Virus record (IMG/VR): IMGVR_UViG_3300020043_004003
Location: 1-36,277 of that record
Direction: 5' to 3' (one strand)
DNA length: 36,277 nt
Source of the DNA: a virus
Lineage: Duplodnaviria > Caudoviricetes
Under the pieces are notes generated by a model, which was given only the letters and a program-made list of their open reading frames with translations, ran no database searches and had not been told where the DNA came from. A program made the translations under genes and the position numbers. Positions 15,770 through 24,894 of this stretch are shown here, piece by piece (position 1 is the first letter of the stretch; each line of letters begins with the position of its first letter).

Positions 15770-15945
15770 TCGAATACATGAATGTTAAAGGCTTTGACGT
15801 TCTCGACATGAGCCGAATAATCAAATGCCTATCGCTAGGCGGTGAGATCACTAATATATTTGACTGTACTTGGATGGAGTTGAATGCGGATTATATCGCC
15901 CGCCTAGAATATCTTACAAAAACCCAAACAGGAGAAGTGAAATGA
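15757..15945 (+). CDS. Small hypothetical protein
   Basis: Overlaps both neighbours in operon fashion. Confidence 0.55.
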   Translation: MAGIVEYMNVKGFDVLDMSRIIKCLSLGGEITNIFDCTWMELNADYIARLEYLTKTQTGEVK

Positions 15946-16526
15946 CAGAACAAACAACGCAGTTGGAGGTATTAAAGGAGCCTATGGCATTAGGTGAAGT
16001 TTTTGCGGCGTCAGGGATGTTCCCAGACATAAAGACACAGGCGCAAGCCGTGGTTAAGATTATGGCAGGGAAAGAGCTTGGCCTAAGTGCTTTTCAATCA
16101 GTGTCAGGCATCTACATGGTCAACGGACGTCTTGCCCTACAAGCTGGGGTTATGTCGTCGCTGGTAAAGAGAAGCCGCAAATATGATTATACGGTTGACG
16201 AGTTGACTGCCGAAATTTGCAAGTTGACCTTTTATGACATTAGCAAAGATGAACACAGGCCACTAGGAACAAGCGAGTTTACCTTTAAAGACGCCGCTAA
16301 AGCGGGGCTGGTCAATAAAGACAACTGGAAGTCATACCCTAAAAACATGCTTTTCGCTAGAGCGTTGTCTAACGGCGCAAGATGGTATTGCCCCGATGTT
16401 ATCTGCGGTTGGTATACCGAGGAAGAAGTGCAGGACATCGAACAGCCACCAATCGACGCCAACAAGACAGTAATCGACTTAACAGCAGAGGGGGTTCGTA
16501 GTGAGCCGAGTTCATCGAGCGTATAA
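15942..16526 (+). CDS. RecT/Red-beta-like single-strand annealing protein
   Basis: IMAGKELGL...IYMVNGR...AAKAGL..KDNWKSYPKNMLFARA...CPDV; start at ATG 15942 after AGGAG. Confidence 0.75.
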   Translation: MTEQTTQLEVLKEPMALGEVFAASGMFPDIKTQAQAVVKIMAGKELGLSAFQSVSGIYMVNGRLALQAGVMSSLVKRSRKYDYTVDELTAEICKLTFYDISKDEHRPLGTSEFTFKDAAKAGLVNKDNWKSYPKNMLFARALSNGARWYCPDVICGWYTEEEVQDIEQPPIDANKTVIDLTAEGVRSEPSSSSV

Positions 16527-17124
16527 AAATTCTTTGCCATCGGTGACAACTATCTTGGGCGTGTTACGTAAGCCTGGGCTAGAGCATTGGTTTAAAATGA
16601 ACACTTTAAAATTCATTACCAACGCAACAAACAAGGGCAAAACCATAGGAACACAGACACACGAGGCCATAGAACACTTCATAACCACAGGGAAAGCAAG
16701 GGTAGAATCTGAATACCCCACGGAAGTTATTAATGCGCTTAGTTCCTTCATGCTGTTTAGAAAAGAACATCCAGAATGCGATCTAAAGCTGTCAGAGACT
16801 GCGCTAGTACATTCTGTACATAATTATAACGGAACTATTGACGCCCCTAGCCCGCCGGATTTGTACGACTGGAAAAGCGGGGAAGCTAAAGAGTTAGACA
16901 AGCCGAAAGTATATCCAGAGTGGCTTTACCAGTGTTCAGCCTACACACATCTTTGGAATGATAATTACCCCGACACGCCAATAAGACGAGCGCATATAGT
17001 GGCTCTAGCCAAAGATAAAGTAGCGTATAACCTCTACACGATGGAAGAAGAAGAAATCAACAGTTGTTTTAACGAAGTGTTCTTATCTTGTTTAAGAATA
17101 CACAACTACCAAAGGAGAAAGTAA
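16501..17124 (+). CDS. PD-(D/E)XK exonuclease
   Basis: PSVTTIL, GTQTHEAIE, E...GTID...DWKS, QCSAY. Confidence 0.8.
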   Translation: MSRVHRAYKNSLPSVTTILGVLRKPGLEHWFKMNTLKFITNATNKGKTIGTQTHEAIEHFITTGKARVESEYPTEVINALSSFMLFRKEHPECDLKLSETALVHSVHNYNGTIDAPSPPDLYDWKSGEAKELDKPKVYPEWLYQCSAYTHLWNDNYPDTPIRRAHIVALAKDKVAYNLYTMEEEEINSCFNEVFLSCLRIHNYQRRK

Positions 17125-18010: not shown

Positions 18011-18038
18011 TTGCTTTTGTATCTAATTGATATATACT
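18011..18038 (+). promoter_or_regulatory. Sigma70-type promoter
   Basis: TTGCTT-16-TATACT in an intergenic gap. Confidence 0.55.
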
Positions 18039-18063: not shown

Positions 18064-18234
18064 ATGAATAAAAAACCACTATATCCACAACCGAAGATGA
18101 TACGGTTTACCGAGCAACAAGAAAGAGACGGCGTAAAGCTAGCGGTTCGCAGAGGATTGACATTCAATCAACTTATTCGTGATCTGTTAGACAGCGCAAT
18201 CAAAATCGACGGTATAACTAGAAGCATGAAGTAA
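18064..18234 (+). CDS. Second RHH-like regulator, 56 aa
   Basis: Hand translation MNKKPLYPQPKMIRFTEQQERDGVKLAVRRGLTFNQLIRDLLDSAIK...; GAGG RBS. Confidence 0.6.
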   Translation: MNKKPLYPQPKMIRFTEQQERDGVKLAVRRGLTFNQLIRDLLDSAIKIDGITRSMK

Positions 18235-18265: not shown

Positions 18266-18412
18266 ATGACCAATCCCACCACAAGACCAATTTCAAGTCC
18301 CGAAGATGTCTACCAATTCATGCAAGACGGACAGGAAGAATACCGCCGTCAGATTCAGATGGAAGATATCGTTTCCCATATTTCTAGGTCAAATCAATTA
18401 AATTGGAATTAA
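18266..18412 (+). CDS. Small hypothetical protein, 48 aa
   Basis: AGGAG RBS; MTNPTTRPISSPEDVYQFMQ... Confidence 0.55.
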   Translation: MTNPTTRPISSPEDVYQFMQDGQEEYRRQIQMEDIVSHISRSNQLNWN

Positions 18413-18416
18413 TAAC

Positions 18417-18574
18417 GGTTGCTGTGGCGGAAAAGGTAGACGCAGTGGAGTTGATAAAACACACGAGTCGGAGTAAGGTTCCCGATTCATGCAGGGTGAC
18501 TATACGAGTAAATGCCGTGATGTTTAATCGGAGTAAAGGTGGAAGTGCCTCTCGTCAAATCCCTGCCAGCAACC
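18417..18574 (+). ncRNA. tRNA-like element (Leu-type D arm, expanded T arm, no canonical anticodon arm)
   Basis: 8-bp closing stem GGTTGCTG/CAGCAACC; TGGCGGAAAAGGTAGACGC; GCAGGG...CAAATCCCTGC. Confidence 0.65.
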
Positions 18575-18586
18575 TAAACAATAAAC

Positions 18587-18647
18587 AGCCCCGCCCGGTG
18601 GTTCGGGTTTCCGGCCTCTGCCGTGTAAAAGCGGTGGAGGCGGGGCT
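18587..18647 (+). ncRNA. GC-rich structured element following the tRNA-like element
   Basis: AGCCCCGCC/GGCGGGGCT closing stem with inner hairpins. Confidence 0.45.
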
Positions 18648-18663
18648 AGGATAAGGAGAGAAG

Positions 18664-19056
18664 ATGAAGATATTTGATTCATATTCAGGATGGGATTCAA
18701 AAGTAAACTTTTCCGATAACAACAATCTTGTTGTTGGGTATGACACTTATCAGAGTTGCTGTGAACATGCCGATTGGTTTATAAGCAAAACCGAAGACAA
18801 TAATATTGAAGGCAAAGAACAACCCAAAGATGGCCTTGAAGAATATGTCTTTGATAAGCAATATTTCGTATCCGTTGAACCCGCCAGAAACGAGTGGGGA
18901 AGCTGTTTAGATTCAGGTGGTATGGTTCGTTTTAAAATGATTGCCGATGGGAAACCGGATTTATTTCTACATATTTACAATTCACACAACGGTTATTATT
19001 CACATGGTTTTGATTTTAAAGAAGGCAAAACCATTATTCAATCTGGAAACATTTAA
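18664..19056 (+). CDS. Hypothetical phage protein (QSCCE...HNGYYSH motif)
   Basis: AAGGAG RBS; motif type recurrent in phage accessory proteins. Confidence 0.75.
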   Translation: MKIFDSYSGWDSKVNFSDNNNLVVGYDTYQSCCEHADWFISKTEDNNIEGKEQPKDGLEEYVFDKQYFVSVEPARNEWGSCLDSGGMVRFKMIADGKPDLFLHIYNSHNGYYSHGFDFKEGKTIIQSGNI

Positions 19057-19067
19057 GGAGCAATAAC

Positions 19068-19250
19068 ATGCCAACCAACAAAGCGACCCCCATCAACCCC
19101 GCCCAAGCCAGACAGAAATTAGATTGTTTGACGAGGTATAGGGAGGCGTTGGAATTAATAGCAGGAGTGACATATAACAAAAGTCTGACATTAGCTGGTT
19201 GTAAAGAAATAGCAAGTGAAGCCCTAAAAGAAGAAAGCGAGAGGTTATGA
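19068..19250 (+). CDS. Small hypothetical protein
   Basis: AAGGAG RBS; ATGA overlap with next gene. Confidence 0.6.
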   Translation: MPTNKATPINPAQARQKLDCLTRYREALELIAGVTYNKSLTLAGCKEIASEALKEESERL

Positions 19251-19645
19251 AAATACTAGAAGAAATCAAAAAACTTAGAAGAAACGCTAAAGAAATTCGT
19301 GACTTATTCTTGGTTCGCATACCCTCCTGGGCAGAATATCCCAAGACCTACGATAAAACCGGCTGGGGTTTTAATGGTGATGATCGTTTTAAGTCCTGTT
19401 CAAATGTACAAGTATTTTTCTACAGCTTGATGGGAACCTATGGAAATTCATCCTGTACTACTCAATGCTCGCTGGATGCCGACGTTTTTGCAAGTCACCT
19501 TATCAAATATTTAAACAAGAATCAGAAGGCCATAATGCTTGCGATAGCAGACCAAATCGAGGATGAAGCTCGTTCAATAAAAGAAAAAGCAGAGAACGAA
19601 TTAAACCAAGAATTGAACAGCCTTAAAGAATTGGAGACTAAATAA
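19247..19645 (+). CDS. Hypothetical protein
   Basis: GAGG RBS; operon packing. Confidence 0.7.
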   Translation: MKILEEIKKLRRNAKEIRDLFLVRIPSWAEYPKTYDKTGWGFNGDDRFKSCSNVQVFFYSLMGTYGNSSCTTQCSLDADVFASHLIKYLNKNQKAIMLAIADQIEDEARSIKEKAENELNQELNSLKELETK

Positions 19646-20619: not shown

Positions 20620-20764
20620 GGAGCGTCCGTGGCGGAAAAGGTAGACGCTAGAGCCATCTTAATTCATTCACAATTTGTAGGGCGACGACCGAATAGGATG
20701 ATGGCTTGAGATTGGACGCCTCCACAATACTTGTAGGGTGCAAATCCCTGCCGGACGTTCTCCA
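20620..20764 (+). ncRNA. tRNA-like unit A1 (cloverleaf with 41-nt insert in place of the anticodon loop, ends CCA)
   Basis: GGAGCGTCCG/CGGACGTTCT stem + CCA; D arm identical to 18425-18443; GAGCCATC/GATGGCTT stem; T arm GTAGGG-TGCAAAT-CCCTGC. Confidence 0.7.
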
Positions 20765-20771
20765 ATATGAC

Positions 20772-20851
20772 GGGTCGGGTAAATGGTCGCTCGCATGACC
20801 GTTCCGAGAGGTAAGAGCAAAGGTCGTTAATATTGACACCTGCCCCGGCCC
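20772..20851 (+). ncRNA. Unit B1: structured RNA closed by GGGTCGGG/CCCGGCCC
   Basis: 8-bp stem; 3' CCTGC stacked on it as in A1; internal hairpins. Confidence 0.6.
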
Positions 20852-20861
20852 AAAATTAAAC

Positions 20862-21003
20862 GGAGCGTCCGTACCGTGTCAGAGGTAGGTAAGACGCCAA
20901 TCGGTGAACCCACGCATGACTGACAGCCCGCGAGGATAGCCCGATAGGTGAAGCGACAAATTATTGTCGTTGGAGCCAAGTGAGGAATCTGGCCGGACGT
21001 TCC
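20862..21003 (+). ncRNA. Unit A2: same closing stem as A1, unrelated interior
   Basis: GGAGCGTCCG/CGGACGTTCC 10-bp stem; GCGACAA/TTGTCGT hairpin; T-like GCCA...AAT-CTGGC. Confidence 0.6.
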
Positions 21004-21013
21004 ACAATATGAC

Positions 21014-21124
21014 GGGTCGGGTGGCTTCAGAAAATAGAAGCTGGAATCGAACACACTACAGGCGTTCTCTGGTGTTGATAATCAGTCCGAAGGATTGAGG
21101 CGAACACGAACCCTGCCCCGGCCC
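21014..21124 (+). ncRNA. Unit B2: same closing stem as B1, unrelated interior
   Basis: GGGTCGGG/CCCGGCCC; GCTTC/GAAGC hairpin; long arm CAGG.GTTC...GAAC.CCTG containing GTGTT/AACAC and TCAGTCC/GGATTGA. Confidence 0.6.
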
Positions 21125-23901: not shown

Positions 23902-24203
23902 AAACACTGGGCGATTTAAAGGGGTTGCTGCCGGCAAGATCAGACCGCTGGTATGATGGTACTACAGAAGATGCTATTGGTCTGCATAAAAACAAAATCA
24001 TCAACCAAATCTCCGCCATCCCGCTCCTAGATGTGGTCAAGAAGGCCGTGGAGAGTGGGGCGGTTGTGATTAAACCTTGCACTGCTAACTGTTTAAATGG
24101 GATTATTACAGATTATGAAGGAGCAGAGGTTAGAGACATTGTATGCCCAACATGTTCAGGCAGAGAATATGTAATCACCGAAGGAGAGGTCGGCGGTGGT
24201 TGA
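23898..24203 (+). CDS. Hypothetical protein with DnaJ-like CxxCxG Zn ribbon
   Basis: CTANCLNG...CPTCSG. Confidence 0.65.
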   Translation: MKTLGDLKGLLPARSDRWYDGTTEDAIGLHKNKIINQISAIPLLDVVKKAVESGAVVIKPCTANCLNGIITDYEGAEVRDIVCPTCSGREYVITEGEVGGG

Positions 24204-24894
24204 AAACTTAGAAGATTTAAGAGAAGAATTTTTAAAGAACGGCGGGCATGAAATAACTGACGCCATAACGGTTATTAAATTTATGCTTAGTAAAGGATTT
24301 TCCCGCCGACCGAAGCTGGTTCCGTTGGATGAAAATACCGTCTTTAATTGGTTTCGTTCGACATTCAAATATGATTTAAAGAGTGGTTTTGGAGTAAACA
24401 AAAGAACGAAATTCTTCAAAGATAAATCTAAAGAATTTTGCCGCGCCTTCTCTGCCCAGCCAGCATCGCAGGGGTTGCCTTTTCCTGGTTTTCATGATGA
24501 CGATTTTTTTGAGACGCTTAAACACTATTCTGGCGGTTTAATTAATGACAGCAATGGAACAGCGGTTGCAAATGCCGTAGCCGAGAGAGCCAATATAGTT
24601 CTTGAAATGAAGTTGCGGCTCGCTAAGAAAGCGGAAGATTATTTGTCCGCCTCATCAGTTAATGCGGAGGTAGTTAAGGCTCTTAAAAACTGTGCTGGAA
24701 AACTTCAGACATACGTTGATAGTGGCAATCCAAGATCACCGTACAAAAACGGCATCAATCCATTTTATGTCCTTGGTAGTAAAGAAGCCTTAAAAGATGC
24801 CGAACAAGCCCTCAACTCCATCAAAGCGGGAAAGGAACCAAATGCTCATAAAGATGAATTTGCCGGAGAGAATCGACAATCCACATCACTGTGA
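24196..24894 (+). CDS. Hypothetical, apparently mosaic protein
   Basis: 232 aa ORF with short domains joined by linkers. Confidence 0.65.
   Translation: MVENLEDLREEFLKNGGHEITDAITVIKFMLSKGFSRRPKLVPLDENTVFNWFRSTFKYDLKSGFGVNKRTKFFKDKSKEFCRAFSAQPASQGLPFPGFHDDDFFETLKHYSGGLINDSNGTAVANAVAERANIVLEMKLRLAKKAEDYLSASSVNAEVVKALKNCAGKLQTYVDSGNPRSPYKNGINPFYVLGSKEALKDAEQALNSIKAGKEPNAHKDEFAGENRQSTSL

Follow-up and report, generated by a model that had tools for sequence, protein, structure and literature searches.

The window analysed here is an entire virus record of 36,277 bases, and a PHROGs scan of its 52 ORFs identified genes for terminase, a major head protein, a primase, a RecT-like protein, an exonuclease and an ERCC4-type nuclease. 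In public runs, the region is found mostly in wastewater, biofilm, aquatic and groundwater metagenomes. The RecT-like annealing protein and the exonuclease are encoded on the plus strand at 15870..17124 (phrog_561 and phrog_298). Farther along the same strand lies a tRNA-shaped element of 158 nt, A3 (18417..18574), which is intergenic and is placed inside the co-oriented early operon, between a 48-codon ORF (18266-18412) and a GC-rich three-way hairpin (18587..18648, plus strand, folding energy -39.8 kcal/mol). This hairpin, directly 3' of A3 and 5' of the ribosome-binding site of ORF 18664 (18654-18660), has no match in Rfam, is retained in alleles that lack A3 and has a second loop that varies in relatives; it may be a structured RNA in its own right. 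A promoter-like TTGCTT-16-TATACT at 18011-18038 was spotted by eye; it is absent from the list of a consensus scan, which found no excess of promoters (7 vs 7.7 expected). The first gene past this site, a 56-codon ORF (18064-18234), looks by eye like a ribbon-helix-helix regulator; it has no family match and is present on 7 contigs. Relatives of this phage omit whole early genes at ribosome-binding-site borders (18658-19641, 18668-19062 and 19241-19641), which marks the early region as a modular cassette array.

A3 is closed by an acceptor stem of 8 bp, in which GGTTGCTG at 18417..18424 pairs completely with CAGCAACC at 18567..18574; no CCA follows. Next come U8 and a tRNA-Leu-type D arm (18425..18443) with a 3-bp stem, A14, A15 and the loop GG. 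The original prediction had described a D arm identical to that of a sibling element, A1, combined with a different but fully paired closing stem, and both statements are accurate: a 20-nt D-arm word has exactly two copies in the window, at 18424 and 20629, with 0 expected from 100 shuffles. Variable segment 1, of 47 nt (18444..18490), replaces the anticodon and variable arms; it consists of a weak hairpin and a 7-bp hairpin (18465-18488), ends in a conserved CAU that contains U48, and is exchanged in relatives (joint 18444 to 18488). Six base pairs (18491..18496 with 18561-18566) make up the T stem, which encloses an expanded T loop. Its 5' junction (18497..18508) includes UGAC, a 3-nt linker and the 5' strand of an insert helix (ACGAG, 18504-18508); variable segment 2, the T-loop payload (18509..18550), contains one or two predicted hairpins, and its first part is exchanged in relatives; the 3' side (18551..18566) includes the other strand of the insert helix (CTCGT, 18551-18555), CAAAU (predicted T-loop positions 56-60) and the 3' strand of the T stem. 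All these features are on the plus strand. The insert had been placed correctly within the T loop, but its length, between G18498 and C18556, is 57 nt rather than about 55 nt, and the whole loop region is 64 nt. The word CAAATCCCTGCC matches the window exactly at 18556 and 20741; with two mismatches allowed there are 6 matches vs 2.7 expected, which alone is not striking. The fold of A3 has a z-score of -2.42, with 1 of 200 shuffles equally stable. ARAGORN reports no gene in A3 at default settings and noise only at relaxed thresholds, and the Rfam scan of the window has no match to A3. The score of A3 with the model R1 is 113.9 bits, which is the score of a training member because R1 was trained on A3 itself. 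The 6-bp T stem and the 47-nt variable segment at the anticodon position were not part of the original prediction.

The minimum-energy fold of A3, as a single sequence, favours a rival UGAC/GUCA helix over the predicted ACGAG/CTCGT pairing by 1.0 kcal/mol, whereas comparison across relatives favours the ACGAG/CTCGT-type pairing. When a scan specified nothing beyond the T stem and its edges, it recovered 45 stretches (42 distinct), all of a single kind. The 5' side is UGAC in 41 of the 42, although it was not specified in the scan, and the 3' side is CAAAU in 39 and GAAAU in 3. The A-U pair of the UGAC/GUCA helix is broken in 10/42 without compensation, and GGCA is present in 31 of the 101 members of a 5'-anchored scan. 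Conversely, the ACGAG/CTCGT-type helix has compensating changes at 5/5 positions in the unconstrained set and at 3/5 in the alignment described below; its firm core is 4 bp, because the first pair is often A-G. The edges of the insert are a conserved signature of the family, a feature that the original prediction did not include.

T-loop length forms a continuum from 7 to 120 bases within one UG..CAAAU frame. The loop has 7 nt in a plain class, 9-37 nt in 20 matches, 15 of which start with UGAC, and 28-120 nt in 101 of the 113 matches anchored at the 5' side only; among the remaining 12, 11 close by eye with one mismatch and 1 is cut off. No loop among the 113 is longer than 120 nt, and none could accommodate an ORF or an intron capable of self-splicing. 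Strict bulge-helix-bulge geometry is found in 0/110 members, and the joints listed for contigs of 7 runs (X6 had no cover, and contigs drop rare forms) include none that removes the insert. The lack of a bulge-helix-bulge fit and of an insert-less contig suggests an expansion arm rather than an intron, and the idea that the insert is spliced out finds no support. We infer that the exit point of this arm lies between T-loop positions 55 and 56. The tRNA backbone turns at these positions, so that an extra helix leaving at the turn should still allow U54-A58 and G19-C56 to form. The accessible text of PMC10424219 describes how positions 55 and 56 contact the D loop.

The T-arm junction alone matched 24 viral stretches, and a relaxed pattern matched 110; in genomes, the junction pattern gave 30 matches, 21 of them with a paired T stem. 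Incomplete pairing of the T stem excluded 9/30 genome matches and 12/110 viral matches, and L287, with 5/6 pairs, was retained. The fully paired 6-bp T stem is found in 98 of the 110 distinct viral matches, in 16 sequence variants. A D-arm start lies upstream in 82 of these 98 members, although it was absent from the search pattern, and at least 7 contiguous acceptor pairs are found in 75 of the 82, a count that is biased upward because the script picked the best register. For the analysis of covariation we aligned 42 of the 82 members, picked mainly for moderate length. Across all four helices, insert helix included, 98.2% of the 924 cells are paired, and 15 of the 22 pairs changed on both sides (0/500 shuffles were as high; slid registers, 38-46%); all 8 columns of the acceptor stem changed on both sides. 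The covariation that had been suggested from the closing stems of two elements therefore holds in the family. It should be noted that A14 and A15 were imposed by the search pattern, and their counts carry no evidence. U48 is retained in 107/110 insert-class members, and in the first 8 acceptor pairs there are 17 G-U vs 4 A-C. Folding of insert-class interiors exceeds that of shuffles (mean z about -0.9). An outer duplex of up to about 21 bp is characteristic of the insert class (74/110 members; control 24%) and not of the plain class (31/90; control 26%), a trait that may follow lineage because the two classes were sampled from different phages; A3 is without a long outer stem (-3.8 kcal/mol).

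Parts required for decoding are rare in the family. A canonical anticodon arm after the D arm is present in 1/110 insert-class and 3/90 plain-class members, and an encoded CCA in 1 to 4 of 110 insert-class members; CCA can be added after processing. The absence of an anticodon arm and of an encoded CCA, noticed originally for A3, is therefore a property of the family, and the claim that the element is not a decoding tRNA holds across it. Among the 21 genome loci, 10 are titled Saccharibacteria, Parcubacteria and kin and the others are spread across several phyla; the genome bins may contain stray phage contigs. Loci of 31-55% G+C share this junction. Rfam has no match on insert-class members (40 loci). 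A search for related loci via the ERCC4-type gene found none, and the sole match of a metagenome scan (L335) was rejected as a relative of A3: it is a tRNA-like gene with a different T loop and with CCA present. Tandem arrangements resembling the A1-B2 array of the window were seen at G004:C37:4004-4328 (an insert-class element plus a second match) and at L010:3001-3474 (two insert-class copies with repeated linkers). At L089:499-676, the 5' junction is doubled in tandem within the insert, which is a trace of a duplication or recombination event at this junction. A weak R1 match in the window at 24188-24311 (16.6 bits, E 0.005), produced by an 8-bp closing stem where ORF 24196 begins, is probably due to chance. 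We conclude with high confidence that A3 is a selected, non-decoding structured RNA gene.

The window contains further units of related shape. A1 (20620..20763, plus strand; R1 50.1 bits, E 5e-12) has a plain UGCAAAU T loop and a long hairpin at the anticodon position, where its insert had been placed originally, and belongs to the plain class. It is followed on the same strand by the stem-closed units B1 (20772-20851), A2 (20862-21003) and B2 (21014-21124), the last with a different insert in its T-like arm. B1 and A2 are without an R1 report and B2 scores 6.6 bits (E 2.5); these three folded units may belong to the family and are treated as candidates only. The junction of B2 is a GUUC/GAAC helix extension, differing from UGAC..CAAAU, and its ends are retained in relatives while the interior varies. 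The plain class comprises an estimated 720 or so stretches and is present, unannotated, in phi3T, Listeria phage B054, Enterococcus phage EH-TP1, Lacticaseibacillus phage R29.1 and Lactiplantibacillus phage H1-Guo. The phi3T member (L135:2501-2640; KY030782, about 50190-50328, minus strand) lies just past a yonN-like HU gene, and a DUF3800-VIII Rfam match is found 1.3 kb beyond it. One plain member (L139) reaches 26 bits on the Rfam tRNA model, under the cut-off of 29. A true tRNA-Asp in a Saccharibacteria bin (L265:1341-1412, minus strand) has the T loop UGCAAAU, as in the plain class. RNA motifs of known phage types (int-alpA and DUF3800-V) are found a few hundred bases at most from family members (L146:126-196; L260:1731-1826).

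Contigs of related phages reveal four states of the A3 locus: the allele of the window; a refilled scaffold with other interiors (X18 record 3 and X7 record 18); an empty allele that joins 18414 to 18588 (runs X1, X18 and X19, and DNA run X7); and a different filling of 111 nt (run X5). The A3 gene is thus an accessory allele that is present, absent or refilled, a point beyond the original prediction. Because the empty allele is also found in the DNA run, it represents a genomic difference and not RNA splicing. In run X1, the depth of about 1,900 drops to 3.5 across the A3 interior. The ends of A1 and B2 are likewise retained around different interiors, and one X5 contig links an A3-type 5' junction with an A1-type 3' end. 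That interiors differ between relatives with common flanks bears out the view that the scaffold accepts payloads at different arms. Seven pairs of members with the same 3' end include 2 with unrelated interiors, 2 intermediate pairs and 3, all from one CPR lineage, with conserved interiors. For example, upstream identity is 0.97 for L003/L006 and 0.92 for L007/L017, and their interiors have identities of 0.20-0.38 (baseline 0.45). Within this lineage, changes in the payload stems come as compensating pairs, and the loops are nearly fixed. The edges of the swaps in public runs coincide with the conserved blocks; together with the presence of the RecT-like protein and the exonuclease, this makes short-homology recombination the likely driver, with these two proteins as the likely agents of segment swapping. 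A3 is partially covered, with the insert attached and in contigs only, by two RNA-labelled runs from a single study; the RNA-labelled run X18 yielded the same pieces as DNA run X7, and these contigs therefore cannot speak for transcription.

In CPR bins, the tRNA-shaped element comes after two paired genes, for Rep and a tyrosine integrase, that belong to a small integrated element, and before variable cargo (L477 at G001:C3:48000-66000, L260, L266, L274, L275, L282, L284, L286, L287 and L289). The cargo includes DNA methylases, an EcoRII-type nuclease, NYN and DUF3800, and two copies of the element flank 5.2 kb in G001. These loci look like a defence-cargo hotspot anchored on the RNA gene of the element. 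Two copies in G006 were considered as attachment sites and rejected, as they are part of a 2.6-kb identical duplication.

What has been established is a tRNA fold, by covariation, without decoding parts and with a second cargo site in the T loop within the UG(AC)..CAAAU frame. Our best explanation, which we put forward tentatively and rate somewhat short of probable, is that A3 acts as a carrier with a tRNA fold but no decoding role: released from the early transcript, it would display recombination-swapped hairpins in trans. The RNA would be transcribed within the early operon and excised by host enzymes, either tRNA-processing or double-strand nucleases. Many insert-class members have a long outer stem, which could offer a route through RNase III when the elbow is masked. 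The stable RNA would then show its two hairpin payloads to factors of the host or of rival phages, and the payloads might serve as protein baits or act by short pairing. The conserved blocks would act as short homologies for RecT-type swapping. A carrier role is supported by interiors that fold better than shuffles and by the covarying payload stems of the CPR lineage. As a precedent, the accessible text of PMC3753655 describes an engineered scaffold that consists of the acceptor, D and T arms and shields, in E. coli, an RNA placed at the anticodon arm.

Searches for targets and partners gave the following results. Payload pairing with the element's own flanks equals that with control flanks, and matches of 9-10 nt between payloads and the window equal those of shuffles, in comparisons that would miss short split seeds. 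Anti-Shine-Dalgarno content of payloads is unremarkable in 11/12 tests; CTCCT occurs 6 times in plain members vs 2.1 (2/200 shuffles). A long trans target in one host genome (G003) was not found (best non-self E 0.45). The 99 neighbouring ORFs include no recurring partner gene and neither RtcB nor TROVE, and payloads share no motif outside one related subgroup. In the absence of a recurring motif, payloads may be neutral filler, and the many strains without the A3 gene count against the carrier. A broader version of the proposal, a "tRNA-scaffold vector", seems to us rather unlikely: it envisages a widespread natural leucine-tRNA core with two programmable ports, at the anticodon arm and the T-loop expansion, with recombination-swapped cargo aimed at host defence or regulatory factors. 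If true, such a vector would be a diversifying library of RNA effectors without a dedicated protein partner.

Among the alternatives, the one that survives best, although we consider it doubtful, is that the L-shaped core alone matters, as a mimic or decoy, and that the interiors are filler reshuffled by recombination. The core is invariant and the interiors share no motif, some T loops carry almost no payload, and true tRNA genes are close to 9/109 and 7/80 loci. In this reading, the core would bait defences that sense or cut tRNAs, or regulators that bind them. Against it, the helix at the elbow should hinder elbow readers. Filler is also hard to reconcile with interiors folded beyond the level of shuffles and with CPR payload stems that covary around retained loops.

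A cis-acting signal is less probable still: cleavage at the tRNA-like fold by RNase P, RNase Z or RNase III of the host would segment or stabilise the early polycistronic mRNA, with the released RNA as a by-product. The intergenic position in a co-oriented early operon is compatible with this reading, and a ribosome-binding site with ATG is found at most 50 nt downstream in 17/110 members vs 7 in the control and, in a second set, in 21/90 vs 5. RNase P is also known to act on tRNA-like structures in mRNAs and other RNAs (PMC4919922, accessible text). However, most members have no such downstream site, A3-less alleles are common, and a cis signal leaves the folded, exchanged payloads and the invariant T-loop junction unexplained.

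It is very unlikely that the element acts mainly at the DNA level, marking the borders of cassettes as an attachment-like site or a handle for recombination. The CPR genomes, in which it lies about 20 nt past the tyrosine integrase and before variable cargo, with the two G001 copies 91% alike over 203 nt around the 5.2 kb of cargo, fit such a handle. Conversely, the 17 to 4 ratio of G-U over A-C in acceptor pairs suggests a single strand, U48 and the D loop persist, the scan of the 52 window ORFs found no integrase, and most neighbourhoods are without one.

An intron-bearing tRNA gene, with the T-loop insert spliced as an archaeal-type bulge-helix-bulge or a shrunken group I intron, is highly improbable. 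Exact excision would yield UGCAAAU, as in A1, or UUCAAAU, and the single-sequence fold has a 4-bp helix with a 3-nt bulge. This bulge-helix-bulge register was rejected by comparison, given the broken central A-U pairs, the GGCA variants and the lack of strict geometry reported above, together with the lack of insert-removing joints among those listed; moreover, the spliced product would still have no anticodon. A group I intron was rejected on loop length among the 113 matches and on the lack of an Rfam intron match, and a parent intron with an ORF was found in none of the 113. The catalytic core of group I introns takes 200 nt or more.

A decaying tRNA-Leu pseudogene is scarcely credible: the D arm matches an annotated Caulobacter phage tRNA-Leu and R1 gives T4 tRNA-Leu 17.8 bits, but the compensatory changes throughout, the intact derived T stem of the 98 pattern matches and the same junction across the range of G+C content are not those of a decaying gene. 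The 83-codon ORF 18403-18654, which would have counted against the original prediction had it proved to be a conserved translated protein, has next to no probability of being the real gene despite its open TTG frame, as it has no PHROG, Pfam or NCBIfam family, is missing from a collection of 15 billion proteins in which three neighbours are present, has its frame open in 3/110 members and loses 173 nt in relatives.

Few parts of tRNA are as resistant to change as the T loop. Yet more than 100 phage genes retain a helix in it, with up to about 110 extra bases, and the junction that leads into this helix is nearly invariant. This expansion represents a new structural motif and possibly a second cargo site for RNA engineering. 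Because hundreds of phages, among them the model phage phi3T, have the plain form in their genomes without annotation, its role can be tested in Bacillus subtilis. If the cargo of the carrier that we prefer is targeted, the family would constitute an overlooked, fast-evolving RNA arm of the conflict between phages and hosts.

Several known systems resemble the element in part. As in class II tRNA-Leu (Rfam RF00005), an acceptor stem closes both ends and is followed by U8 and the GGCGGAA..GGUAGACGC D arm, A15 is accompanied by U48, and the T arm has the C56 and A58 positions; the conserved tRNA positions used for this comparison follow the accessible text of PMC10424219. Unlike tRNA-Leu, the element has no anticodon arm or CCA, a T stem of 6 bp instead of 5 bp with a 7-nt loop, G at position 55, an acceptor stem often longer than 7 bp and a helix within the T loop. 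A tmRNA was rejected, because ARAGORN reports none and A3 has U3-A70 in 7-bp numbering, not G3-U70. In C4 and CI RNAs, variable loops set specificity. The C4 antisense RNA of P1/P7 and the CI RNA of P4 resemble the proposed carrier as phage RNAs with variable loops that are excised from a longer transcript. The element differs from them in having no Rfam match, no complementary targets in flanks or genome, and true tRNA-Leu D and T arms. For C4 of P1/P7, cleavage from the longer transcript by RNase P is given in the title of a work cited in PMC4919922.

YrlA Y RNAs (PMC4201824, accessible text) share with the element a non-decoding tRNA-like domain with tRNA tertiary contacts, in bacteria and phages. 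According to the same text, YrlA carries its acceptor-like stem as an internal stem-loop and has Ro60 encoded within 4 kb, whereas the acceptor stem of the element is formed by the ends of the RNA. The GNCGAAN0-1G motif near the 5' end is found in 1/110 members, no Ro60/TROVE gene is found among the 99 ORFs within about 1.1 kb, and none is named among the 52 window ORFs (PHROGs). T4 rnaC and rnaD (species 1 and 2), of 139 and 119 nt, are likewise oversized stable RNAs of a phage tRNA cluster; they have neither the D arm nor the T-loop junction of the element, and R1 has no match to them at E up to 1. We know of no function for rnaC and rnaD. The tRNA-Other of Bacillus cereus is an island-linked pseudo-tRNA with a regulatory-RNA part outside translation (PMC3399842); compared by description only, it differs in retaining a Trp anticodon, and the accessible text of that paper does not describe swappable payloads.

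No account of the family was found by title or abstract start, although supplements of structured-RNA surveys or B. subtilis transcript tables may contain it, and the accessible parts of PMC2965217, 10.1101/2021.11.22.469490 and PMC7824862 do not mention the element. Most likely, by analogy, it works like the engineered tRNA scaffold of PMC3753655, in which, as the accessible text has it, the acceptor, D and T arms are retained and folded cargo replaces the anticodon arm. Unlike that scaffold, the element is natural and phage-borne, has no encoded CCA, offers a second cargo site in the T loop and has its cargo swapped among strains. The conserved element, undescribed in the sources searched, is kin to the non-decoding tRNA-shaped RNAs of phages, to which it adds a new T-loop expansion motif.
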